Shown here: positions 1-63,986 of the stretch, piece by piece
Numbering within the stretch: the stretch's first letter is position 1
Layout of the letters: every line of letters begins with the position of its first letter
IMG/VR virus record: IMGVR_UViG_3300028027_000002
Coordinates: 47,871-111,870 of that record
DNA length: 64,000 nucleotides
Source of the DNA: a virus
Direction: 5' to 3' (one strand)
Translations under genes and position numbers: made by a program
The notes under the pieces: model-generated
What the model saw: only the letters and a program-made list of their open reading frames with translations
Database searches by the model: none
Told to the model about the DNA's origin: nothing

Positions 1-3000
1 AAACCTAAAACTCCAATTACACCAGAGTTTAGAGCAGTTTCTGCTGCAGGTTTTGAGGGAATTACACAAGAAACAAATAAAGAACTAGACCTAGGCACAG
101 CAAGTGTTACTAAGTTTGTTGATGAATTTACTAATTTAGATCCAATTGAAAAGTGGGGGACAAGTCTTAGAAATGCTGGACTTGATATTGATGCTCATGC
201 AGAAGATATCAGGCAACTCGATGCAATTTATCAAGAGCACCTAAGAACTTTTGCTGAGAGTAACACCTCTGGTGTAATGAGTGACTCAGACCTAGCAACA
301 ATTAGAGAGCAAGCACTAAATGATCCTAGGTCAAATCCAACTGTAGTCGCAGCAGCAAGAAGATCTTCTAATAATGTTTCAGGAATAAGATCAAGCGGTG
401 TTGGACAAGAGCAAGAAGATATGATTATGGAGGCATACGCAAATGGAGAGATCCCTCTTCCAGAAGGTGTAGACTCTGTACCTGAAAAATTATTTCCAAA
501 ATCAGGCTCAGCAATTGGTGGAGAAGCAGGAAGAAAGAAAAGACTTGGAGTATTTGATCAAGAAGTAGAAGATCAGTTAGCCCCACTTGTTGTTGCTACT
601 CCAGAAGCAGAAGCAAATGCTGAAGCAGAAGGTGAAAAGATTGGTAAAGCGGCGACAAGAGGTGTAAAGAAGGGTGCAAAAACAGAATCTCCTTCTACAG
701 ATGGAATTGAAGTTGGTAAGGATATTGCAGAAGGGGTTGTCATTGGTTTGCAAGAAGGAGAGGCTTCAGTTGCTTCTCAGGGTGCACAACTTGGTTCTTC
801 TGCTGTACCTAAAAAACCAAGAACTGCAGCAGAAACACAAGCAAGAGTTGATAAGATGGATCTTGACAACAAGGCTTTCTACGATGACCTTGATACTCCA
901 GAATTTCGTGATGAAAGACAAGTTCTTAAGTCTTTAGATAGACAAAGAAGAAAGCGTGGCGCTACGGGAACCGTAGGCAGTGGTCCAGCAACACCACCAG
1001 TCCCAGGACCATCTTCTTTAACTGTTGCCTCAACAGCAAGAACTGAAGCAGCAGCAGAAGATTTAGCGGTAAGTACAGAGCAGGCTGCAACAGCGCAAGC
1101 ACAAGTTGTGCAGCAAATTAATGATGAAAGTAGATCAAGAGTTACTATCAAGGGTAATACTGTTAACATTCAAAAGGCTCGTGAAGAAGCAGACAAGGCT
1201 GAAAACGAAGCAGCAATTACAAGAGCACGTGCCCATGCACTTGAAAGTGAGCAGTTAAAGCAAAAGAAGTCTAATTCACCAACCACCATCACTGATGAAC
1301 AAGTCCTGGCTGCTAAAGAAAAGGCTAATGCTGCAGAACTAGAGTATGCAAGAATAAGACAAGAACTAGCAGAGCAAGGAATCACTGCAGCACAACCAGG
1401 AGAGATGCAAGAAGTTGCTATACAGGATCCAGTTAAGACTCCAGCAAAGGTTAAAAAAGCAGAAGATATTATTTCTAACGGAACAGTCGAGCAAGGAGAT
1501 GGCCTAAGACGAATTGTTGATGGCACAGAGGACACAGCAGATTCAACTCTGCTAGTTGCAGAACAAACAGATGAGATTGCAACAGTAACTGGAGATATTA
1601 TTCCAGCACAGACAGATAACTTAGATAATGTGATAACAACAGCATCACTAAACGATGCAATTGTAAACACTACTGGAGATATTCACGGATCAACAATAGA
1701 AACAGCAATGTCTCAAGAAGAAATAGTTGCACTACAAGAACAAGAACAGGTTTTAAGAGAGCAATTAAATGCAAATCTTAGACGACAAAGTGATGCTGTT
1801 TTATCAGGTAGTGACCTTAGCCCAACAGGTAAAAGGAGACTAACCGAGCAGGAAGCACTAGACGAAGCATTTGGAAGAGATCCAGGAACAAATGGACCAG
1901 ACGACTTAGGTCAAAAGGGGTACACAAGAAATAAAAAGGGAGAAATATTATTTGATCCAGAAACTGGTCAGCCAACAACTATGGATGAAAAACAAATAAC
2001 TAAAAAGAAACGTGGTATGCGTAAAGAGAAGGTTGGAAAGTTTTCTGGTAAAGCAGCAGGTGCTTTGGGTATGGCAACAATGGTTGCTGGAGCAGTTGGT
2101 GCACCACCACAAGTTACAGCAGCATTAGGAACAGCAGCGACAGTTGCACAATTTGCCCCAATGATTGCTGGAATGGGTCCAGTAGGTCTAGCAGTTACTG
2201 CAATCGCAGCAGTTGGTGTTGGTCTGATGGCATTGAATAAGAGACTTCAAGCGTCCTATGATGCTCAAGCAAAGTTTGTTCGTGAAACATCTGCATCAAC
2301 AAAGAAGATGGCAGAAATCGGAGCAATCACTGGTAAAGTTGGTGCTTCTGAAATTATGGCCAAAAAGAGGGCAACTGGAACCACAAGAGACTATATTGTT
2401 AGAGAAAGAGCGGGATCTTCATTTGGAGACACCTTTATGCAATCTGATACTGGTAAAGCAATGTCAAAAACTCTTCAGGCAAATATTACAAAGTCTGGAG
2501 CAAAAGAAGCAGCAGAAACATTTGCAACTGAGATCGCAGCATATGTTCAAGATGGAGTTTTAACTGCAGAGCAGGCTCAGGACATTGCATATCAAATTGG
2601 TGTTAACTTTAAAGATACATCTCTTGGAATTAAAGTTGATGCAAACCTTTCAGCATTAATCGGACCAAATGGAGAAGATCTTGCAAAAGATCCTATGGTT
2701 GTCGGAATGAGGCTTGTACAGTCTGCAGAAAGAGGCTCTTTAAATTCAGTTAAAAGTATTGATGAAGCAAAAAGCCATGGTCTATCTGGAGCAACAGAAG
2801 CAGCAGATCTTGGTGCAAGAGAGGCCGTTGCTATGCAGATGGCTCAGATGCAAGCAGACGCAGTTGCCAGAAGGTACGATGATGAAATCAGAGCATTAGA
2901 AGCACAAGTTGCACAAACTAAAAATAAACAAGAACAGATAAAACTTGAAGATAAACTAACTGCTCTAAAAGAAAAAGCATATGATGCAGAATCTCAGATG

Positions 3001-6000
3001 AACAACATAGTTGCTAATCAAACAGATATGGCAATGCAAAGATTTACTGAAGAAATTCAGCACCAAAGTGTAGTTTGGGATGCTGTAACACTTGGACTGT
3101 ATAAACTTTGGGGAGCAGGAAACCAAAGAGAAGCAGCATATACTCGAGCACTTAATGGGGCAATAACTGATAAGTATGCAAATACAGAACAAGCAACTGA
3201 AGCAGCAACAGTTTCGGACAGACTTGCAAAGTTTGCTGATGGTAAGACTCTTGGTTTTGGTACAAATAATTATGAAGACGCAGGGTTTGCAGGGGGCAAA
3301 GAGGCTCAGCAGTTTGAAGTAAAGATGAAACTATTGATGGCAAATGGAACGCTTACTCCAAACCAAACAACAGCGATGCTTGACTTATTTGAAGGTAACC
3401 TTCCAAGACTTGAAACAGTGTTAGATATTGGAACAAGAATGCACGGAGCATCTGCAACAGCAGAAATTATAATGCTATTGACAAACTTCCAAGATAAAGA
3501 GTATGCACAAAAAATAGCCTTAGAAGTAACTACACAAGACAATGAGTCATTTAAAAAGTTGTCAGATATTTTTGGACTTGCAGCCCAACTTGATGGTAAA
3601 GAAATTAACATGGAAGTTGTTGTTACAGAAGTGGGTGGGGTTGCTGGATTAGAATACTATATTGAAAGACTTGACGAACTTGAAACAAAAATAAAGGGAC
3701 TTAAAGGTAAGTCTATAACACAAGAAGATGTTGCTCAATTTACAAAAGATACAAATGTAAAGGTAGACGACGGTTTCCTTGACTATATAAATACAGAGTT
3801 TAAAGGTGATGGAAAGAAGCAAGCAGATGCAATAAGAGCCTATACCCTTGTATACAAGCAAATTATGTCAATGGACTATGCAAGTGAAGAAGCAAGAGAC
3901 TACTTTAGATCACAAGCAGGTCAGATGGCAGTTGATAAATTAAATGAACTTAGAAAAGCAGGAAATGCTCCAGCAGATATTGAGACATATATAAAGAACC
4001 AAACAGAAATTGAGATTGATGCTTTAATTACAAAAGTAAAGGTCGATCCAACAGCAGTTACAGGTGACAAAGTTGAGACTTATCTAGGAACCAAACCAGT
4101 AGTTGATAGCAATACTGGACCTGGCGGTAATAAAGATGGAGGAACAAAGAAAGAAGATCCTCTAGCATTCTTAGAATCTCTTGCTATGCGTATCAAGATG
4201 GTTAGAGATCAGGCATTTAACGCAAAGAAGCCAATTGAGTCAATGCTTGCAGCATTCAATAGTCCTGCTGCAAAGAAAAATGTTGCAAACATGTTTACAC
4301 TATTTGACGGGTTACAACAAAAACTTATTGCTCTAAAGGTTCCAGAAGAATTTAGAGACTATATTGCAGGATTAGATGCCCAGCAACTTGAGGATTTGAA
4401 AAAGGCTGACCTTGACAAAAAGAAAAAGGGACAGCAAGGAATATTCCTTTATGGTGAAAAGAAAGACAAAGATGGAAAAACTGTAAAGGATAAAAAGGGT
4501 AATGTTGTTTATGATACTTCAAGAATTGTTGGAATATCAAAAGAAGGTAAGGCTATTATGGCAGCCTATAACGAAGCCCCACTGGACAAATTTAATATTG
4601 CACAGCGCAAGGTAGTAACTGACACTGACATGCAGTTTAAGGCTTTTAATAAATTAAAGGCAGCAGGAATAGATACAGGAGTTGCTCTAGAAACTGTCTC
4701 AGACTCAGTTCTTGCAGCATCCATTGCTTCAAGTGCTCTACAGGGAACTGACCTAAAAATATTCATTGATGATTTAAAGAAATCTGCATCTGCAGCAGAA
4801 AAGGCTGCTGTCATGGCAGACTTACTAAAAAAGAACGCAGACTTTAAATTTAAGAACGAGACATTCCCTAAACTTGCTTCTTCATTAAAGATTGCAGGGC
4901 TTTCTGCTGAAAACATTGCAACAGTACTTCAAGATCCAGCATTAGCAAAGCAGTTAATGGCAGACCTAGAAGATGGAAAGATAGACTCTAAGGCAATTGC
5001 TGATTACTTAAATAGTATAAAAGAAGAAAAAATTGTTGAGATTCGTGGTAAGTTTAATGCTGGAGATTTTGCTGCAGCAGCAGCACCAGGCATGGAACTT
5101 GTTAACAAGATGTTTGCAACGCAGGAAGCATTGATTAGAACTGGTATTGATGGTAGATCTAAAGCCATGGTTGCAAGACTTAAGGATTTAAAGGAAGTTA
5201 ACGAAAACCTACAACTTGATATACAAAAAATAACTTTTAATCTAATACGACCACTAGAAAAGGCTATTGAGAAGGCAACTAGAGATCTTGAAATAAAGGT
5301 TACTCGGAAGATCGAGGCTTATCAAGAAGAAGTAAGTGACCTTCAAAGAATTATTGAAATTGCTTTTGAAAGACCAATAGCAGCGATCAATGCAGAAAAT
5401 ACAATCATGTCTAATGACATGGAAATAATGAACAAGGCTGCAGAAGAAATCAACAAGAGATATGACGAACAGGCAGAAGCGTTGTCTAAGGTTGCAGCAA
5501 TTAATGCTGAAATTGTTGCCCAAGAAAAGGAACAACTCGATCTAGCAGACGCACTGTCTAAGGGTGATATAGCAGCAGCAGCAAGAGCAGTTCAGTCTAT
5601 ACGAGCATCACAGGCTGCAAAAAATGCAGACAATGCGTCAAAGGCTTTAGAGCAATCACGTAAAAATGAAGTTGATAGTCTTAGAGGTCGTGACTCTGGC
5701 CTAAGCAAAGACGAGATTACTGAAAGACAATATCAGAATGCTCAGGCAATTTATGATCTAGAAAACAGAGCGACAACAGATGTCAACGGCAAGTTGATGA
5801 CAAGGCTTCAAATACTAGATGATATTCAAAAGAAGAATGATGAAATTTATAAACTTGAAGAAGATCGTGAGGCAAGACAACTTGCTATCCGTGCACTTGA
5901 AGATAAGATTTACGATATAAATGAACAACAAATTAAGCCAAAGCAAGATATAATTGACGCCAATGCTCTTCAGATTGCTATAGATGAAGATGCACTACAA

Positions 6001-34319: not shown

Positions 34320-34844
34320 ATGACCTGTATTGTTGCTTTACGCCATGAAGATAAAATTTATATGGCTGGAGATCGTGGAGCATCAGATGATGGTGTTATT
34401 CTTTCACTTGAATCACCAAAGGTTTGGAAGGTTGGACCTTACTTAATTGGATACGCTGGATCAATGGATGGTGACAGAATTAGACACAACTTTAGACCAT
34501 CAGCACCCAACATTAAAGACACAGATAAATATATGCACACCAAGTTCATTAAGGAACTTCGTGAATTTTATAACGAGTTCTGGATTGACACATCTAAAGA
34601 TGGCGAACTTAGTTTGATCATTGGTATTCGTGGAGAAATCTATGAGCATAGTTCTGGAGATATGTCTTTATCCAAGTATTCATTACCATATGTTTCTATT
34701 GGCTCTGGATCAGAGTATGCCTATGGTGTTTTATATGCAACAGACAAGCAAAAAAATGCAAGGAATAGAGTTAATCAGGCAGTATCTGCAGCAATTAAAT
34801 TTAACCCATCGTGCATGGGACCAGTTGACATCATAAGCGCTTAG
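34320..34844 (+). CDS. HslV/proteasome-beta-like Ntn hydrolase
   Basis: N-terminal (M)TCIVA, MAGD, KV, GYAGS, SIGSGSEYAYG. Confidence 0.8.
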   Translation: MTCIVALRHEDKIYMAGDRGASDDGVILSLESPKVWKVGPYLIGYAGSMDGDRIRHNFRPSAPNIKDTDKYMHTKFIKELREFYNEFWIDTSKDGELSLIIGIRGEIYEHSSGDMSLSKYSLPYVSIGSGSEYAYGVLYATDKQKNARNRVNQAVSAAIKFNPSCMGPVDIISA

Positions 34845-41864: not shown

Positions 41865-42149
41865 ATGCCAAAGCACGAATGGAAAGATGATGCTTTGTGT
41901 TTAGATTACGACACAAATATATTCTTTGAAAAGTATGAAGATGATGAACTTCTAAGACCTGCAGTAGACAAACTTTGTTCTATGTGTCCAGTGTCTAAGA
42001 TGTGTTTTGCTGTTGGTGTTTCACAAAAAGAGTGGGGTATCTGGGGTGGAGTTTATCTCGAAGGTGGACAAATATCTAAAGAGTTTTCAAAACATAAGTC
42101 TAAAACAGACTGGGCAAATACTTGGCAAAGACTAACAACGGAGCAATAA
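41865..42149 (+). CDS. whiB: WhiB-family Fe-S transcription regulator
   Basis: W...ALC...FF...C..CPV...C...GIWGG. Confidence 0.92.
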   Translation: MPKHEWKDDALCLDYDTNIFFEKYEDDELLRPAVDKLCSMCPVSKMCFAVGVSQKEWGIWGGVYLEGGQISKEFSKHKSKTDWANTWQRLTTEQ

Positions 42150-46696: not shown

Positions 46697-46698
46697 AG

Positions 46699-46770
46699 CA
46701 CCCCTGGCAGGAATCGAACCTGCGACAAACGGATTAGAAGTCCGCTACTCTTCCGCTGAGTTACAGAGGT
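46699..46770 (-). tRNA. tRNA-Arg(TCT)
   Basis: Cloverleaf; GCGGA-CTTCTAA-TCCGT; GGTTCGATTCC. Confidence 0.92.
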
Positions 46771-46774
46771 ATTG

Positions 46775-46847
46775 TATCTCCAACGGAATTCGAATCCGTG
46801 TTGCTGCCGTGAAAGGGCAGAGTCCTAGGCCACTAGACGATGAAGAC
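46775..46847 (-). tRNA. tRNA-Glu(TTC)
   Basis: Cloverleaf; CTGCC-CTTTCAC-GGCAG. Confidence 0.92.
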
Positions 46848-46851
46848 TTAG

Positions 46852-46925
46852 TACATCTGGAAGGACTTGAACCTTCGGCTCTCTGCATATAAGGCAGGTA
46901 CTCTAACCAACTGAGTTACAGATGT
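46852..46925 (-). tRNA. tRNA-Ile(TAT)
   Basis: Cloverleaf; CTGC-CTTATAT-GCAG; GGTTCAAGTCC. Confidence 0.88.
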
Positions 46926-46929
46926 GTAG

Positions 46930-47004
46930 TACACCAGGTAGGACTTGAACCTACGAATAACCGAATTATGAGTTCGGGGCCTTAACCAACTTGGCTACTG
47001 GTGC
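46930..47004 (-). tRNA. tRNA with CAT anticodon (Met or Ile2)
   Basis: Cloverleaf; CCGAA-CTCATAA-TTCGG; lacks the initiator GGG/CCC anticodon stem. Confidence 0.9.
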
Positions 47005-55770: not shown

Positions 55771-56205
55771 TTATTTATTTTCCATTTCTATTAGGGTCAT
55801 TTCTTCAATTGTAGCGCATTGTGGGCACTTTTGCAAGTCTGCCTCGTCAAAGGCATCTCTAACTATATTATCAGGGTCCTCAAACTCAGCATTACAGTTC
55901 TCGCAGTAGAACCAGTTATGGCTTACCAAGACCTGCACGGTATCGTCAGGGGTGAAAGGAATCTCAGTGACAAAGTATCCTATTCTATTAACAAATCCCC
56001 AACCATTCCAGATATATGTGCCACCGTCGTCTCCGTCTCCATACATCCAGATATGGCCATTGCCTGCCTGCTTTACAAACTCTACTTCCTCACCATATGT
56101 TTCAAACATCAATCCGTCGAATGAAGCATTAGTGTCTATATGATTAGTGATAGGCTTGTACTTATCTACCCACTCTTCAAATTCAAGTTCTGTAAAGTTA
56201 CCCAT
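55771..56205 (-). CDS. Hypothetical protein with C-terminal zinc ribbon
   Basis: MFETYG...GFVNRIGYFVT; CENC...CPQC. Confidence 0.6.
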   Translation of the reverse strand: MGNFTELEFEEWVDKYKPITNHIDTNASFDGLMFETYGEEVEFVKQAGNGHIWMYGDGDDGGTYIWNGWGFVNRIGYFVTEIPFTPDDTVQVLVSHNWFYCENCNAEFEDPDNIVRDAFDEADLQKCPQCATIEEMTLIEMENK

Positions 56206-56458
56206 TACTCTTTATCCTATCTGCGATAGCAAATGCTAGGTCATATGTTAATTGGTATACTTCTACATAAGCGTCAAGCATACCCTCTAGATGTAGGCGG
56301 TCTACGGTTTGGTCATACTGCTCATTCTCATGGTCAGTATACTCAGCCAATGCTTGCTCGGTTTGATACATGAGGTTCTTTAATTCCCCATGTAGGATGT
56401 TGGTACCTGATTCACCTAAGTCAATCAGTTTTTGTAGTCTTGGGTCTAATGTTGTCAT
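56198..56458 (-). CDS. Hypothetical protein
   Basis: Leaderless gene under a RecA-NDp-type promoter. Confidence 0.55.
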   Translation of the reverse strand: MTTLDPRLQKLIDLGESGTNILHGELKNLMYQTEQALAEYTDHENEQYDQTVDRLHLEGMLDAYVEVYQLTYDLAFAIADRIKSNG

Positions 56459-56666
56459 TAGTCTATTGTAGCCTCTAGCACTGACAAGAAATGGTAGCAG
56501 GCAAGAATCTGTCCAGTAGTAGAAACATCTTCTAACTCTAAGTCCTTATACTCATCACAGTCAAGGTCATCATAGAAGCCCATTTGCTTCTGTAGTTCCT
56601 CAGAGTCTTGCTCCAAGGACAGCAGGTGTAGTCTTACATATTCTTCGAATGTTTTTAGGTCCATAG
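56458..56666 (-). CDS. Hypothetical acidic protein
   Basis: Likely start MDLKTF; leaderless TTGTCA-17-TATAAT. Confidence 0.5.
56465..56486 (-). promoter_or_regulatory. RecA-NDp/PafBC-type promoter
   Basis: TGTCAG-tgctagaggc-TACAAT. Confidence 0.75.
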
Positions 56667-56668
56667 TA

Positions 56669-56899
56669 TTAATTATACGGGTTGGAGTCGATTTTGACAA
56701 CTGTACGGGGTGTGACCTTGCTCACATCTGTAATGATCGGAGCATAGGCCTCTTCATAACTAATATAGTTTAACATCCTACCACAAGGGCATTTCATTTC
56801 TACAACGCCCAGGGGAAAGCCAAAGCCATCCCTAGCAGTAAACTCAACCATAGCGTCACACTCTTCGGGATCACAGACAAAGGTATACTTACTCCACAT
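56669..56899 (-). CDS. Small zinc-binding protein
   Basis: CDPEEC...CPCG. Confidence 0.55.
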   Translation of the reverse strand: MWSKYTFVCDPEECDAMVEFTARDGFGFPLGVVEMKCPCGRMLNYISYEEAYAPIITDVSKVTPRTVVKIDSNPYN

Positions 56900-57224
56900 T
56901 AGTCAAAGTACCCTTCTGCCCATAGTCCATCTAAGAACTCTGTTGCTTTAAATAGATTATCATGTAGCCAAGGGTCGTTGTTAAAATCAACGGTAGTTAA
57001 AGCAGAATGAATAGCCATAGACATATTGTCTAGATCTTCTTTAGTATAACCTAACATACTTCCTCATCCCACCAGTATTTGACTATAGTATTTAAGGTAG
57101 TGTGAATTGCACAATCACAATCCCCACCGTTCATATTTTCCATGTATTCGAGATGGGACTCGTTGTCCATATACATCTCATTGACTAGTTCGTCAATCGT
57201 TCTCATTGTTTGGGTCATGTATTA

Positions 57225-57246
57225 ATTGTAGCGTATGGGACTGACA
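57225..57246 (-). promoter_or_regulatory. RecA-NDp/PafBC-type promoter
   Basis: TGTCAG-tcccatacgc-TACAAT, ATG 6 nt downstream. Confidence 0.75.
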
Positions 57247-57338
57247 AATGCAAGGTTTGGGGAAAAAATATTTCCTATCGTAAAGAATTTCTGGGAAAAA
57301 TATCAGCCTATCGTAAAGTTATTTAATTAAAAATATTA

Positions 57339-57354
57339 TGTGATGTAGGTCACA
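57339..57354. promoter_or_regulatory. CRP/GlxR-type box
   Basis: TGTGA-TGTAGG-TCACA, perfect consensus. Confidence 0.7.
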
Positions 57355-57403
57355 GCCGACGTCGCAAAATTTTTATGCATTGCGTTGCATATTTATTTAC
57401 TTG

Positions 57404-57477
57404 CGATCCGTATGGGACTTGAACCCATGACCTCCACCGTGACAGGGTGGCGAACTAACCAACTATTCTAACGGACC
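57404..57477 (-). tRNA. tRNA-Asp(GTC)
   Basis: Cloverleaf; CCACC-CTGTCAC-GGTGG; GGTTCAAGTCC. Confidence 0.92.
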
Positions 57478-57481
57478 ATGT

Positions 57482-57511
57482 TGAGCAGTTTTAATTCATG
57501 CTCAGGAAATT
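57482..57511 (-). ncRNA. Repeated pseudoknot motif, copy 3
   Basis: AATTTC-C-TGAGCA-T-GAATT-AAAAC-TGCTCA. Confidence 0.65.
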
Positions 57512-57514
57512 TTG

Positions 57515-58528
57515 TTATGCGTTTGTTAGTTCACGCACAACTTTTAGCAAACGATTTTTTTCTGCGTTGATAGCAGGGTCAAAACCACTTGCAGATGCAA
57601 GAATGGATTCGTTAGAACCACCACGAGCAGAACGGTACCAGTCAAGGCGTTCTGTTAGTGCATTGAAAGCACCCCACGCATTACCAGCAATCATTCCATT
57701 AAACTCGCCTGTATAGATGTCGTTAATAACATCTACCTTGTTTTCCCATTTCTTGAAAGCACCCTTAGAATCCTTTTCAGGCTTTGGGTATGCAGCAAGA
57801 ATGATGTCGTTAAACATCTGAGCAGACACTTCTTTTTCAATCATAGCCTTAGCCATAAGGTCAAAAGAGTCCATGTACTTATGTGCAAGTCCAAGAGTTT
57901 CACGAGCAACGGCAACCTTACCGCTTGCAGTTTGTGTGTGACGAATCTTGAATGATTGCTTTACGCCACCCTTTTTGCGGGTAGTGTTAAGTGCAAGATT
58001 GAGAGTGTTAGCGCACACAACACGAACAGGTGTAATGCTTGCTTGAATAGCGATTGAGCCATCATGTGATGTGTTGATGAGCAAATAAGTTTTTACCTTG
58101 TCTGCAACACCATTAGGGTCAAGAATTGTTTCACGCTCTAGTGCTAAAGCACCGAACACTACACGACCACCCTTGATTGAGCCAGCCGTTTCCCAACGAC
58201 CACCACCATCAAGAATGTTATCACCGAATGAAAATAAATCTTCATTCTGCATTACATGGTAACGCTCACCAACGACACCAAGAATGTCGGTCTGAGTGTT
58301 GTCAGTAGGATTGGTACGCAATACATACTGATAGTTTTTGTCGCTTGTTAGGTGTGTGGGGGTTTCCAAATCCTCAAGACGAACATTCCAGTTGGAAAGG
58401 TTAGCCAAATCTAACATTTCTTTTGTGGTTTTTTCCTCTGTGAATACGGTACCCAATCCATGCCAAGCGGGTTCACGGAAAGATGCAAAAGATGCTTTTC
58501 CGTTTTGTGTTTCTAGGTCATGTGCCAT
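57515..58528 (-). CDS. DUF932 (phage/plasmid-like) protein
   Basis: PAWHGLG, ETAGSIKGGRVVF, NTSHDGS, TPVRVVCANTL, IRHT, AWGAFNALTE. Confidence 0.88.
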   Translation of the reverse strand: MAHDLETQNGKASFASFREPAWHGLGTVFTEEKTTKEMLDLANLSNWNVRLEDLETPTHLTSDKNYQYVLRTNPTDNTQTDILGVVGERYHVMQNEDLFSFGDNILDGGGRWETAGSIKGGRVVFGALALERETILDPNGVADKVKTYLLINTSHDGSIAIQASITPVRVVCANTLNLALNTTRKKGGVKQSFKIRHTQTASGKVAVARETLGLAHKYMDSFDLMAKAMIEKEVSAQMFNDIILAAYPKPEKDSKGAFKKWENKVDVINDIYTGEFNGMIAGNAWGAFNALTERLDWYRSARGGSNESILASASGFDPAINAEKNRLLKVVRELTNA

Positions 58529-58559
58529 GAGTTTTCTCCTTTTTGTTGTTGTTAATTTA

Positions 58560-58581
58560 AGTATACACCCACCCACTGACA
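58560..58581 (-). promoter_or_regulatory. RecA-NDp/PafBC-type promoter
   Basis: TGTCAG-tgggtgggtg-TATACT. Confidence 0.75.
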
Positions 58582-58711
58582 AATGCAAATCGGGATAGTT
58601 AGATGTGGATAAATCGGACATTGTGGTGAAGATCACCTATCGTAAACGGCGTGTCGATTTGACAAAGTTATCCACAGGCGGGACGTCAAAAATTTGCAGG
58701 GATTTTAAAAA

Positions 58712-58740
58712 TGAGCAGTTTTTAAACATGCTCAGGTTTA
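58712..58740 (-). ncRNA. Repeated pseudoknot motif, copy 4
   Basis: TAAAC-C-TGAGCA-T-GTTTA-AAAAC-TGCTCA followed by T-run. Confidence 0.65.
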
Positions 58741-58754
58741 TTAGTAGCCCCCTA

Positions 58755-59174
58755 CTAAATATCCACTCGGTCAATCGATGACGATAACCATGAAATATTA
58801 TCTGAGTTGTATTGCACTGTATCAAAATCAATATCATGAATTAAATTCTGTGCATCCTCTTCATTACGAGCATTGACAGTTACGGAGTACATTACTGTAA
58901 CTTCAACTTCAAATTCTTTTGATAGTTCAAATCCACAGATATCTGCAATTTCTTGTGCTTCTGATTCATTCAATGTACCAGAGTCAAGCGCTTCCAGTGT
59001 CCACTCTTGCATTGCTTCAACGATACGATTCTTATCTGCAGACTCGCCGTATGAGCGTTGTGTTACTACTTGAATATGCTTTTCTAGTTCATCTATGCGT
59101 GTTTTGTTTTGTGCAAGAGTGGTTTCTAAAAACTCTCTTGTCATGTAGTGATTATCGATTACTGGTTGGTCCAT
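58755..59174 (-). CDS. Hypothetical acidic protein
   Basis: GAGG RBS; C-terminal VTVNARNEEDA motif. Confidence 0.6.
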   Translation of the reverse strand: MDQPVIDNHYMTREFLETTLAQNKTRIDELEKHIQVVTQRSYGESADKNRIVEAMQEWTLEALDSGTLNESEAQEIADICGFELSKEFEVEVTVMYSVTVNARNEEDAQNLIHDIDFDTVQYNSDNISWLSSSIDRVDI

Positions 59175-59208
59175 AAGGGCTACCTCTTTCTGTTAGTTGT
59201 TTAGTTTA

Positions 59209-59230
59209 ATTGTACTGGGTACCACTGACA
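59209..59230 (-). promoter_or_regulatory. RecA-NDp/PafBC-type promoter (also TTGACA -35)
   Basis: TTGACAAA-TGTCAG-tggtacccag-TACAAT. Confidence 0.75.
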
Positions 59231-59251
59231 TTTGTCAAGGGCCCTTGCGGG

Positions 59252-59278
59252 GAGCAGTTTTGATACTTACTCAGGTAT
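59252..59278 (-). ncRNA. Repeated pseudoknot motif, copy 5
   Basis: ATAC-C-TGAGTA-A-GTAT-CAAAAC-TGCTC. Confidence 0.55.
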
Positions 59279-59430
59279 TTACACTTCTTGCAGTTGGTGT
59301 GAACTGGCTCTATAGTATTTCTATTATCGCCCTAATCAGCCTGGCGAATGATCCCTAGGGAACGCTTGCTATAAATAGCGTGGAGCGCAAGGGATAATGA
59401 GTGGGGCTTTTACACCCCACCCAATCTCAC

Positions 59431-59853
59431 TTAGAGGTAACGAGCAACCGCATTGTAAGTGCTGGTGCTAACTACTTCCTCATCTGTCATCTTGAGAATA
59501 CGAATTGCGTTTGAGATTTCCTCTTTCTGCTCACGATAGTTATAGATAGAGATTGACTCAAAATCCTTTACAGGCTCTTTTGGCAAATCCTTTTCTGCTA
59601 CTGTGAGGTCGAAGTCAATGTTTAACTGATTGTTCCATGAGCGATAGTTAGTGCGGAAGTTTTCTGCCTTCTTGATGTTTGCTATTGCATAATCAACAAG
59701 TTCCTTTTTCCACTTCTCGTATTGCTTTTGGTACTTTGCTTCGTTTGCTTCTTGTGAGGTGTAATCAAGTTCTAGTTTTGCTAGTGCGCCTTCTAGTGCC
59801 TTGATTACCTTTGGTGTTGCGATTTTTACTGAGATTGCTTTTTGTCGTGCCAT
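59431..59853 (-). CDS. Hypothetical coiled-coil protein
   Basis: ORF under RecA-NDp-type promoter. Confidence 0.6.
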   Translation of the reverse strand: MARQKAISVKIATPKVIKALEGALAKLELDYTSQEANEAKYQKQYEKWKKELVDYAIANIKKAENFRTNYRSWNNQLNIDFDLTVAEKDLPKEPVKDFESISIYNYREQKEEISNAIRILKMTDEEVVSTSTYNAVARYL

Positions 59854-59888
59854 GTTGGTTTCTCTTTTCTTTTTGTGGGTTAGTTTCT

Positions 59889-59910
59889 ATTATAGGGGGT
59901 GGGTCTGACA
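59889..59910 (-). promoter_or_regulatory. RecA-NDp/PafBC-type promoter
   Basis: TGTCAG-acccaccccc-TATAAT. Confidence 0.75.
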
Positions 59911-59993
59911 TTTCCCCCGTAGGGGGGAGAGTTCTTACTTACGACATTGGACTAGATACTCTCCTAAACTGTCCCTGTTTCGATTATCTTATT

Positions 59994-60161
59994 TTACTTT
60001 GCTGTCCAAGTTGTCCAGCGTGTGTTACCATTTACATCTAACTTAACACGAACTGTGTCGCCTGTCTTGCTAGGTGCGATTTCCAAGATTGTGCCTGTTA
60101 CCTTTGACTTCTGTGAAGTGTATAGGTCGCCTACCTTGTATGTTGCGGTTGCTACTGTCAT
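59994..60161 (-). CDS. Small SH3/KOW-like beta protein (not in ORF track)
   Basis: MTVATATYKVGDL...VTGTILEI...VRVKL...RWTTW, AAGGA RBS. Confidence 0.55.
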   Translation of the reverse strand: MTVATATYKVGDLYTSQKSKVTGTILEIAPSKTGDTVRVKLDVNGNTRWTTWTAK

Positions 60162-60273
60162 TTTGTTTTTCCTTTTCTGTTAGGGTTTGTTGCCTTATGT
60201 ATTAAGTATAGCAAAAAATCTAAGAAATAACAAATCCATTTCCAAATAATCTCAAAATGTGAGACATTATCTA

Positions 60274-60289
60274 TGTGATTTGCGTCACT
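60274..60289. promoter_or_regulatory. CRP/GlxR-type box (one mismatch)
   Basis: TGTGA-TTTGCG-TCACT; second near-site GGTGA-GAAACA-TCACA at 60360-60375. Confidence 0.55.
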
Positions 60290-60507
60290 AGGTTTCCTGC
60301 TTATAATACAATTTTAGCAGAAAAATCTCAAAAATACAAATCCTGCCTCAAAACCTGGGGGTGAGAAACATCACATCGTAAACCTGCGTGTTGGGCTTGA
60401 CAAATGACTGGTCAGCCGACGTCCCATTTTTCAGGGGATTAGCCACTACCTCCTAAGATAGAAACCATTACTATTAGTATCATTAGTAAATAGAACCAAG
60501 GGCTCAT

Positions 60508-61242
60508 TTATTTTTTACTTGCACTAAATATGATATCACTCTTAGAGTATACACAAAGTGAGCAAGAAACGCAAGCGCTACCAGCAGTTGAGATAAGTGG
60601 AATTTGTTTATTATTCTCAGGACACTTAGCAGCAGGACGGCCAGTCATTTCTTTTACATCGGCTTGACCAATAGCGAAATTCTTAGCAAGGTATGCCATG
60701 CGAACACCGCTATTAATTTTTAGATCAACCGCTGTTTTTACATTCTCGCTATCTGCAGAGAAGTATAGACTAAGATTAGGAATGTCCTTAAGAATAAGTG
60801 CAGCACTCTTTACACGAGTGTATACCCAGAATTGAACATCCTCATGCTTATCAATAACTACTTTCCATGCATATGTATATGTATCATTAAAGAAATCTCC
60901 GTCCCAGTGGATACGGAATAGCATAGGAGCGTCTTTCTTTATACAGTCATTCTTGAAATCAATGATCATCTCATTAAGCAAGCGGACCATATCTTCACCG
61001 TCTGCGTCTTTAAGCAGATCCCAATTGTGTAATAGGTTAGCCTTTACACCCTTGAAGAGTTTTTCAAGTTTTCCTGCATAGCATACGCTTTCACATACGC
61101 TAGTGGCACCAGGGCACGAGAAAGCCTTTCCAGCAGGTAGACCAAAGGTATTTGCGATTGCGGCTTGCTTTCCATTTTTTGTGACAAGATTAGCCACCTT
61201 TCTATCATTAGAGCGTTTTAGTTTAAGTGTATTAGTAGTCAA
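60508..61242 (-). CDS. GP88-family protein (Cys-rich, radical-SAM-like)
   Basis: FGLPAG...SCPGAT..C...CYA, FRIHWDGDF, FWVYTR, CPEN...CVSCSLC. Confidence 0.75.
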   Translation of the reverse strand: MTTNTLKLKRSNDRKVANLVTKNGKQAAIANTFGLPAGKAFSCPGATSVCESVCYAGKLEKLFKGVKANLLHNWDLLKDADGEDMVRLLNEMIIDFKNDCIKKDAPMLFRIHWDGDFFNDTYTYAWKVVIDKHEDVQFWVYTRVKSAALILKDIPNLSLYFSADSENVKTAVDLKINSGVRMAYLAKNFAIGQADVKEMTGRPAAKCPENNKQIPLISTAGSACVSCSLCVYSKSDIIFSASKK

Positions 61243-61411
61243 GGCCTAGACTCATTTCTAGAGCAATGTCTTCGTTATAAGTATATGACATTTCTTCAAG
61301 AAGGCAATGAGTGCACTTATCTTCATACTCATCTACAGAGTTTTCTTTGCATGAAGGGCACACTGTTGCATAGTACTCATCAAGAATTTCATCGTTTTCG
61401 TAGGTCATGGG

Positions 61412-61558
61412 CTATTCTCCTTTTTGTTGATATTTTAATTGTATCAGTTCGGACTGACATTTCTTTCGATTGTAAGTCCTTTTAGAAGGCACGGCAGAGG
61501 CAGCGTTGCTACGGCGTAGGTCCATAAGCCTGCGGAGTTCCTCATCTGTTTTCTTCAT
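61412..61558 (-). CDS. Small basic protein (not in ORF track)
   Basis: MKKTDEELRRLMDLRRSNAA...; leaderless start. Confidence 0.5.
   Translation of the reverse strand: MKKTDEELRRLMDLRRSNAASAVPSKRTYNRKKCQSELIQLKYQQKGE
61438..61459 (-). promoter_or_regulatory. RecA-NDp/PafBC-type promoter
   Basis: TGTCAG-tccgaactga-TACAAT. Confidence 0.75.
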
Positions 61559-61604
61559 ATAACAATATTAACACACATCCAACAAAAATGTCAAATCTGA
61601 ATCG

Positions 61605-61620
61605 TGTGATTAAAATCACA
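61605..61620. promoter_or_regulatory. CRP/GlxR-type box
   Basis: TGTGA-TTAAAA-TCACA, perfect consensus. Confidence 0.7.
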
Positions 61621-61788
61621 AAAATTTTTCCGAGCCCAGGTTCGGGGAAAAGAAAATTAACCTTCTTAAAGATATTTTATATAGGTTACTGGTGAGTAGG
61701 GCAAGGTTATCCACAGGTTATCCCCAGACACACCCGAACGCGACGTCCAAAAATCGCAGAGTTTTATTTCTGCGATCTTGGTTTTTAT

Positions 61789-62055
61789 TTATTCGTTTTC
61801 TAAATACGATTCAAAATCATTTAGAAAAACACGATACGCAATCGGGTCGCACTCTTTTAGAATGTCAGCAGGATAAAATAAAATTCCTGCAATCACTACT
61901 GGTTCATGCGAATCGTTTATGTATTCGTTGAATTGCTCTTGCAATTCTTGTTCTAACTCATAGTCAGTTTTTTCATCAATCTCATTTAGCAATTCTGCTA
62001 ATACGGGCTCAACTGCTTTTGCAGCAAGGTCTAACTTTTCTTGTAGTGTTTTCAT
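61789..62055 (-). CDS. Hypothetical protein (LKECDPIAYR motif)
   Basis: ORF in early array. Confidence 0.55.
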   Translation of the reverse strand: MKTLQEKLDLAAKAVEPVLAELLNEIDEKTDYELEQELQEQFNEYINDSHEPVVIAGILFYPADILKECDPIAYRVFLNDFESYLENE

Positions 62056-62250
62056 TTATTTAACCAACCCTTCGAACCATTGAGAATAACCACCCATGAA
62101 GAATACCTCTTCACCTTTGTGATTAGTAAGTGTTGCAGTCAATGATTCAGTTTCATCATTAACCTCTAGAATCTCTTTGACAAGATAGTTTTGATCGTTG
62201 GAGATAAACAGTTTTCCAACATTGGTTTTATTTATTAGTGATAGTGACAT
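62056..62250 (-). CDS. Hypothetical protein
   Basis: ORF in early array. Confidence 0.5.
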   Translation of the reverse strand: MSLSLINKTNVGKLFISNDQNYLVKEILEVNDETESLTATLTNHKGEEVFFMGGYSQWFEGLVK

Positions 62251-62553
62251 TAGTTTTCTACTTTCTTTAATTCATGTTGATTGTTAAGGGGGCGATTGTT
62301 ATTGGAGAACATGGCTTCAATAACCGCTTTATCTTTTATTGATTGAGCAATTCTTTTTTCTTGTTGCTCTTTAAGAATTCTATCAAAGGTACTCATTAGT
62401 CAAAGTATCCAAATTCTCCTATGCAAGAACCACAGATACCTGAAAATTCTTGCTCATGCTTTTCGCAATAAGCGACTTTCTTTGTTACATTAGTGTTAGT
62501 CATTTTTGACCTAACCTTTCTTAGTGAGAGTTTCTCACTTTCTTTATACTGTA

Positions 62554-62575
62554 AGTGTAGCATGGGGGACTGACA
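62554..62575 (-). promoter_or_regulatory. RecA-NDp/PafBC-type promoter
   Basis: TGTCAG-tcccccatgc-TACACT. Confidence 0.75.
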
Positions 62576-62614
62576 AATTAGCCTGTTTTTCGGGCGTGTC
62601 GGAAAACTATTTTT

Positions 62615-62663
62615 TGTGATAAGCATCACATGACTTATCCACAGGTTATCCACAGGCGACGTC
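62615..62663. promoter_or_regulatory. Composite block: CRP box + two DnaA boxes + GACGTC
   Basis: TGTGA-TAAGCA-TCACA (62615-30), TTATCCACA (62635, 62646), GACGTC (62658). Confidence 0.75.
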
Positions 62664-62703
62664 GCATTTTTTATGCGGGGAAGTGCATAAAAAATACTTT
62701 TAG

Positions 62704-63583: not shown

Positions 63584-63780
63584 TATGCATTTTCCTTTTC
63601 TTTATTGTGTTCATTTATTTCATTACTAGCGTACCATACGACATAGTCGTTTTCAAGTGACACGCCTTTAGCGCACTCACAAAATTCTGAGTCATACTCG
63701 CCTGATGAGTTACCAAAAAATAGTACGCCCTCATCATAGCAATCAACGCAATCAACCAAAAATTCAATTAAGTTTCCCAT
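63583..63780 (-). CDS. Small Cys-containing protein
   Basis: CVDC...CEC. Confidence 0.5.
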   Translation of the reverse strand: MGNLIEFLVDCVDCYDEGVLFFGNSSGEYDSEFCECAKGVSLENDYVVWYASNEINEHNKEKENA

Positions 63781-63986
63781 TAGTTATCCTGTACCTTTAC
63801 TGCTAGTGTGCGACAAGTAGTTTTCCCACCATTACTAGGGCGAACCTCGACTAGATAACTTTCGCAATCTTTGTACCAAACTGCGTTAGGGTGTTTTTCT
63901 GCTGAAATAATTTCTCCCTGCAAGGTGCGTGAGAAATACATTTTTCCTACAAGTAGGTTTTCTATTGTATAGACATTTGCTGACAT
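63780..63986 (-). CDS. Hypothetical protein
   Basis: GAGG RBS upstream. Confidence 0.55.
   Translation of the reverse strand: MSANVYTIENLLVGKMYFSRTLQGEIISAEKHPNAVWYKDCESYLVEVRPSNGGKTTCRTLAVKVQDN

Follow-up and report, generated by a model that had tools for sequence, protein, structure and literature searches.

The DNA-damage response of actinobacteria is governed mainly by the activator PafBC, a proposed drug target in mycobacteria, and its signal, single-stranded DNA, is also produced by phage infection. The motif associated with it, RecA-NDp, was reportedly given by Gamulin in 2004 as tTGTCRgtg-8nt-TAnnnT. Here we describe promoters of the form TGTCAG-N10-TAnnnT in a window of 64,000 nucleotides of phage DNA, i.e., the whole stretch analysed (IMG/VR virus record IMGVR_UViG_3300028027_000002, bases 47871-111870; coordinates refer to the window unless marked as genome). 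We propose that these phage promoters probably belong to the PafBC (RecA-NDp) class and would be switched on by the PafBC of the host.

In Mycobacterium smegmatis, chromatin immunoprecipitation gave the PafBC consensus tGTCgg(N10)tA(N3)T, in which the box serves as a -26 element, and mycobacterial PafBC promoters have no -35 element (PMC8635444). Levels of the protein are constant, and it becomes active in response to single-stranded DNA (PMC11804915; PMC8223512). The phage sites resemble the promoters described in Mycobacterium and other actinobacteria in having TGTCRG placed 10 nt from TAnnnT, with the box centred near -26 (PMC8635444; PMC11804915; PMC8223512). They also share with actinobacterial PafBC promoters the choice of A or G at box position 5, the T-S-S sequence after the box, and the occurrence of some leaderless sites. 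Unlike the host promoters, they are packed on one strand, a dozen or more in a dense block, in a predicted lytic phage, they drive small uncharacterised genes rather than repair genes, and many of them also have a -35-like hexamer and a TG-extended -10 box; the PafBC reader, moreover, is here predicted from sequence.

Two phage systems also invite comparison. The middle promoters of T4, composed of a MotA box and a -10 box, likewise have an upstream box at a fixed distance in place of the -35 element and are interspersed with ordinary early promoters; they need an adaptor on region 4 of the sigma factor (sigma appropriation by MotA and AsiA). The T4 adaptors are phage-encoded, whereas none was found here and the box equals the site of a host activator. 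Phages wired to the SOS response through LexA boxes or RecA-dependent repressor cleavage are similar in coupling a phage programme to the DNA-damage signal of the host, but the route proposed here is LexA-independent and would act by activation instead of derepression, in a phage in which no integrase was found. LexA-box-like sites are not enriched (3 versus 2.7 expected). The first-pass annotation of this DNA, made from the letters and without database searches, had supposed that such a phage regulon was undescribed, and a literature search on PafBC or RecA-NDp together with phages indeed returned no such promoters; the published links between PafBC or WYL proteins and phages that were found concern host defence. 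What appears to be new is a known promoter class in a new setting, a dense phage regulon with added -35 and extended -10 features.

The virus record comprises 111,870 bp (111.9 kb) with a G+C content of 38%. Its two ends carry a 99-bp repeat, which indicates that the assembly is circular or circularly permuted. No integrase or resolvase was found in searches of the phage genome, which is described here as that of a putatively lytic actinophage. An arm of about 19 kb of small minus-strand genes wraps around the record ends, and the promoter cluster heads this arm and extends to the beginning of the opposite, divergent one. The same-strand sites of the window are the following:

56465-56486, minus strand: TGTCAG-N10-TACAAT promoter; leaderless ATG at 56458 of an 86-aa open reading frame (ORF; 56198-56458)
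57225-57246, minus strand: TTGCAT-t-TGTCAG-N10-TACAAT promoter; leaderless ATG at 57218 of a 55-aa ORF (57051-57218), followed by small genes
58560-58581, minus strand: TGTCAG-N10-TATACT promoter of the DUF932 gene (57515-58528)
59209-59230, minus strand: TTGACA-aa-TGTCAG-N10-TACAAT promoter of a 139-aa ORF (58755-59174)
59889-59910, minus strand: TGTCAG-N10-TATAAT promoter of a 140-aa ORF (59431-59853), immediately preceded by a hairpin
61438-61459, minus strand: TGTCAG-N10-TACAAT promoter of a 58-aa ORF (61232-61408) and the GP88-family gene (60508-61242)
62554-62575, minus strand: TGTCAG-N10-TACACT promoter of four consecutive small ORFs, from 62504 down to 61789
63964-63985, minus strand: TTGGCA-aa-TGTCAG-N10-TACAAT match of uncertain function, overlapping the beginning of ORF 63780-63986; copy of genome 63-84 in the end repeat

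The first seven of these had been described in the first-pass annotation, and all are present as placed there; the eighth was absent from it. In total, the window contains 10 exact matches to TGTCAG-N10-TAnnnT, compared with 0.89 +/- 1.03 expected from 100 dinucleotide shuffles, none of which reached 10. As background, a 2.9-Mb genome (a metagenome-assembled genome labelled Chitinophagaceae) has 19 matches versus 14 for the reversed control, or about one per 150 kb. Two of the window matches, 4609-4630 on the minus strand and 61863-61884 on the plus strand, look like chance occurrences, since they are antisense within genes and have poor -10 boxes. The cluster runs over the record junction, and past it lie minus-strand sites at genome positions 118-139, 978-999 and 2099-2120, together with a plus-strand site in divergent orientation at 2982-3003. 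The whole genome has 12 promoter-like sites, 11 of them on one strand, within about 10.5 kb and zero in the other 100 kb, and in all 12 the -26 element is TGTCAG.

Ten of the sites lie 22-53 nt 5' of an ATG with a Shine-Dalgarno sequence. The two sites said to be leaderless (57246 and 56486) were borne out, their ATG codons at 57218 and 56458 being only 6 nt past the -10 box, so that leaderless mRNAs are predicted. The genes downstream of two sites do encode DUF932 (E value 1e-46) and GP88 (E value 8e-53) proteins, as had been suggested, and the other downstream genes encode small proteins matching no family.

A search with the DUF932 protein gave 391 related viral contigs, and spacer and strand counts were taken from the best 80 of these loci (655 kb). 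The gene strand of these loci has 398 copies of the motif and the opposite strand 5, and the 398 matches with a spacer of 10 nt compare with 0-25 at the other spacers from 6 to 14 nt. Enrichment confined to one region and an invariant 10-nt spacer had both been anticipated; the scan of the whole genome and of related phages locates the enrichment in the 10.5-kb cluster only, and 10 nt is the only spacer length populated in the relatives. The logo derived from 270 distinct phage sites reads A-W-W-TGTCAG-T-S-S ... (T)G-n-TAyAAT, with T or A at +6 in 84% of sites and G or C at +7 and +8 in 87-89%, despite the 38% G+C of the genome. Upstream of DUF932, 56 distinct orthologous sequences keep the box and the -10 box, and the spacer varies. 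Leaderless sites make up 11% of those in the phage group.

The variation tolerated in the box was measured by pooling 111 related loci (962 kb) and counting every one-mismatch box at the same phasing. TGTCAG is found 476 times on the gene strand and 4 times on the other, TGTCGG 29 times and once, and any other one-mismatch box no more than 10 times each on the gene strand, with similar numbers on the other strand. The sole tolerated change is thus A/G at box position 5. The TGTCGG sites fall at real promoters, e.g., the orthologous DUF932 promoter in locus L014, and most read TGTCGGTGG. Multi-copy, intergenic sites in one orientation might also be like the stoperators of cluster A mycobacteriophages, which are asymmetric sites for a phage repressor distributed across the early genes. 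Stoperators have the sequence GGTGGMTGTCAAG, and that of phage L5 contains TGTCAAG. Unlike stoperators, every site here is locked 10 nt from a -10 box; TGTCAA is at background in the 111 loci (10 versus 14), and searches of the phage revealed no repressor, integrase or resolvase. Stoperators can hardly be the explanation.

The first-pass annotation had called the agreement with RecA-NDp exact, and the comparison upholds this, because the PafBC type has the identical core, 10-nt spacing, A/G choice at box position 5 and T-S-S flank. The A/G choice mirrors the boxes of hosts, which are tGTCgg in M. smegmatis and TGTCAG at the recA promoters scanned here. For the latter, metagenomes were scanned with a pattern consisting of the motif, the RecA GKG motif 85-115 nt later and then the Walker A motif. 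The motif precedes recA in at least 120 metagenome contigs; among the 80 recA loci listed, about 90% encode an actinobacterial-type RecA, most have 58-74% G+C, and many have a GTG start 7 nt past the -10 box, which is a known leaderless recA arrangement. Among 48 distinct recA promoters of actinobacteria, T or A occupies +6 in 43, and G or C occupies +7 in 46 and +8 in 45; these flanks resemble the phage logo.

A second, low-GC group of recA loci (L132, L119, L166, L172 and L122; 44-48% G+C) encodes RecA proteins with 92-96% identity within the group and 78-81% identity to the high-GC RecA. Their best solved match is mycobacterial RecA (603 bits versus 487 for E. coli), and the gene order of L132, dapA-rnj-ftsK-rimO-pgsA-cinA-clgR-recA-recX, is actinobacterial. 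In ten low- or mid-GC recA loci of up to 14 kb, the recA site is the sole TGTCRG-N10-TAnnnT match in each. Since the motif is kept at recA in low-GC actinobacteria, its reader is expected to be present in those lineages, which on the basis of base composition are candidate hosts of this phage. It is very unlikely that an unrelated factor would have converged by chance on the same 6-mer, spacing and A/G tolerance and on similar flanks, and it is this identity of motif that suggests that PafBC binds and activates the phage sites.

High-GC soil metagenome contigs (L098, L106, L152 and about 30 others) have recA leaderless behind TGTCAGTGGCAGGCGTTAGCGT, with GTG 7 nt later. This promoter is nearly identical in dozens of contigs, despite a report that the motif is not conserved in S. 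venezuelae, to which we return below.

The same promoter class was found in a second, very different phage. A pattern scan of viral contigs listed 80 loci, of which 35 have at least three one-strand sites, and all but one of these 35 are related to the present phage; the single-match loci are almost all unrelated to it. The exception, a lake actinophage designated G002, is 110.9 kb long with 43.7% G+C and two WhiB-like genes. No homologue of the capsid protein of the present phage is detectable in G002, and the two have only about 13 proteins in common, none within either promoter block. G002 carries a one-strand block of 19 such promoters, with 18 of these inside 15 kb (C1:44400-59600 and 72885; loci L340 and L341); they have the consensus TTGCAAA-TGTCAGG-N9-TAnnnT and a mostly TG-extended -10 box. 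No WYL domain or sigma factor was found in G002. The presence of one promoter class in two such different phages is most simply explained if the reader is a host protein.

Another possibility is that a phage-encoded activator, made from ordinary promoters of the arm, reads TGTCAG and redirects the host polymerase in the manner of MotA and AsiA, the likeness to PafBC being mimicry or coincidence. Ordinary promoters are indeed interspersed with the TGTCAG class:

61565-61594, minus strand: sigma-70-type promoter TTGACA-18-TAATAT, TG-extended, preceding a 48-aa basic ORF
60303-60331: canonical sigma-70-type promoter
60205-60233: canonical sigma-70-type promoter

Others lie at genome 1126, 2420 and 3872, and several of the whole set are TG-extended. 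These canonical promoters (window 61594, 60331 and 60233; genome 1126, 2420 and 3872) drive tiny uncharacterised proteins. The geometry of the sites, in which an upstream box replaces or adjoins the -35 element, resembles that of the T4 middle promoters (PMC8635444). In searches for a phage-encoded reader, which did not include the MotA and AsiA families by name, the 79 arm ORFs gave no match to a DNA-binding family, and the phage genome none to the WYL domain or sigma region 2; sigma region 4 gave one weak match only (E value 0.038; genome 74909-74983), and a PHROGs comparison of ten small arm proteins yielded nothing informative. Furthermore, such an activator would have had to arrive by chance at the 6-mer, spacing, A/G tolerance and flanks of the host site, and the unrelated G002 has the same promoter class with no common protein from either promoter block. 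Small proteins diverge fast, however, and a common factor could have escaped detection. On balance we consider a phage-encoded activator unlikely.

One marker of an actinobacterial host lies outside the promoter cluster:

41865-42149, plus strand: WhiB-like gene

In the phage collection, all the matches to this WhiB are in phages of actinobacteria. Searches for WhiB homologues otherwise returned metagenomic matches only, probably all phage-derived, and a search of genome contigs with the phage WhiB gave a single contig, L094 (CANGYR010000020.1, contig C20 of G001), from a Chitinophagaceae metagenome-assembled genome. This contig of 22.9 kb encodes a WhiB with 79% identity and carries two terminal TGTCAG promoters; it probably belongs to a relative of the present phage and was assigned to the wrong bin. 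The best matches in cultured phages, for the capsid protein (45%) and WhiB (43%), are to Streptomyces phages, mostly Stanwilliamsviridae. Together, WhiB, GP88, DUF932, the best matches of capsid and WhiB and the leaderless promoters indicate that the host is an actinobacterium. The closest cultured relatives by these two proteins are the Stanwilliamsviridae phages Jay2Jay, BillNye and Sham and the unclassified Ankus, which have a similar genome size and a similar position of WhiB but, unlike the present phage, no enrichment of the motif.

Several observations weigh against activation by PafBC. The four cultured Streptomyces relatives have 0-2 matches per genome versus 1-5 for the control, and their hosts possess PafBC; the design is therefore not ancestral to the wider family. 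The evidence from recA is a proxy, as it comes from lineages that are not necessarily those of the hosts. In S. venezuelae, conservation of the mycobacterial PafBC motif was not detected in a first search (PMC9380542); a RecA-NDp promoter has been reported at recA of S. coelicolor (PMC5087735). The ordinary promoters of the arm drive small proteins of uncharacterised function that could include a phage factor. Among 510 phage sites, 42% have a hexamer at 16-18 nt that agrees with the -35 consensus in four or more of its six bases, compared with a background of 19%, and 55% have a TG-extended -10 box versus 10.5% in the background. In G002, TTGCAA, a good -35 hexamer, is present at 17 nt in nearly every site, and +6 is G, which is rare at host recA (1/48). 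With such -35-like hexamers and extended -10 boxes, many sites could fire without an activator, and the box might add to, replace or even repress promoter activity.

The last set of figures would also suit a reading in which the promoters are ordinary housekeeping ones with TGTCAG as an operator in the spacer, serving either negative control by PafBC or some other protein, or the titration of PafBC so as to blunt the damage response of the host. The position of the box is a common one for repressor operators. On the other hand, 58% of the 510 sites match the -35 consensus in at most 3 of 6 bases and yet have the box exactly phased, the box occupies the place of the activating -26 element, and the searches of the phage detected neither a repressor nor an integrase. 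An operator or sink of this kind is in our view improbable.

In the proposed mechanism based on PafBC, the host polymerase with its housekeeping sigma factor would transcribe the ordinary promoters at once, as their sequences suggest. The PafBC heterodimer, once activated by single-stranded DNA, would sit on the -26 boxes and recruit the host polymerase to about a dozen TGTCAG promoters (sigma adaptation), thereby turning on small-gene units that include the DUF932 and GP88 genes. We speculate that the trigger is single-stranded DNA, which could come from the entry, replication or recombination of phage DNA, from the action of nucleases, or from damage done to the host by sunlight or UV. Judged solely by its gene content and layout, the arm is predicted to be expressed early.

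The promoter-rich arm has additional features. Ordered short boxes recur 5' of several TGTCAG promoters (window 58600-58725, 61700-61790 and 62610-62700; L009 1140-1215 and 2150-2260, minus strand), in the order gene-end hairpin or pseudoknot, GACGTC, a DnaA-box-like TGTGGATAA that is often doubled, a CRP-like palindrome TGTGA-N6-TCACA, and ATGTCCGATTT. Between the divergent promoters, at L009 2260-2400 (genome coordinates), there are four copies of an 18-nt repeat, approximately CACATGACyrGTCTTAGG, and several TATAGGGG(G)TA repeats beside doubled DnaA-box-like sequences; this repeat region might represent an origin of replication or a site for packaging. The tRNA genes are located as follows:

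57403-57477, minus strand: tRNA-Asp gene, isolated within this arm, with the DUF932 cassette on one side and the next promoter on the other
46698-47004: four further tRNA genes, at the far end of the arm

In the whole genome, matches to 2OG-Fe(II) oxygenase families were obtained for ten ORFs and to DUF2061 for three, an oxygenase load that is unusual for a phage. A 174-aa protein (window 34320-34841, plus strand) matches the proteasome subunit family PF00227 (E value 8e-7), and it has a counterpart with 26% identity in G002, an otherwise unrelated actinophage. The presence of this protein is curious because the proteins of the host PafBC regulon are removed via the Pup-proteasome system.

As a broader interpretation, we tentatively suggest, with slightly less than even confidence, that abundant lytic lake phages, in no fewer than two unrelated lineages, have each independently adopted the single-stranded DNA alarm of PafBC as the main switch of their small genes. 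The sensing of phage DNA or of sunlight damage would then license expression, and the copies of the box may divert PafBC from the repair and defence regulon of the host. The cultured Streptomyces relatives, being without motif enrichment, offer no ready bench model among them. If PafBC is indeed the reader, these phages would represent a new form of host takeover, operating through a stress activator of the host with no phage-made adaptor, and would supply natural, compact and strongly selected PafBC-type promoters for study. In the lake environment, this would link the activity of phages to damage by sunlight in bacteria that are among the most abundant in fresh water.

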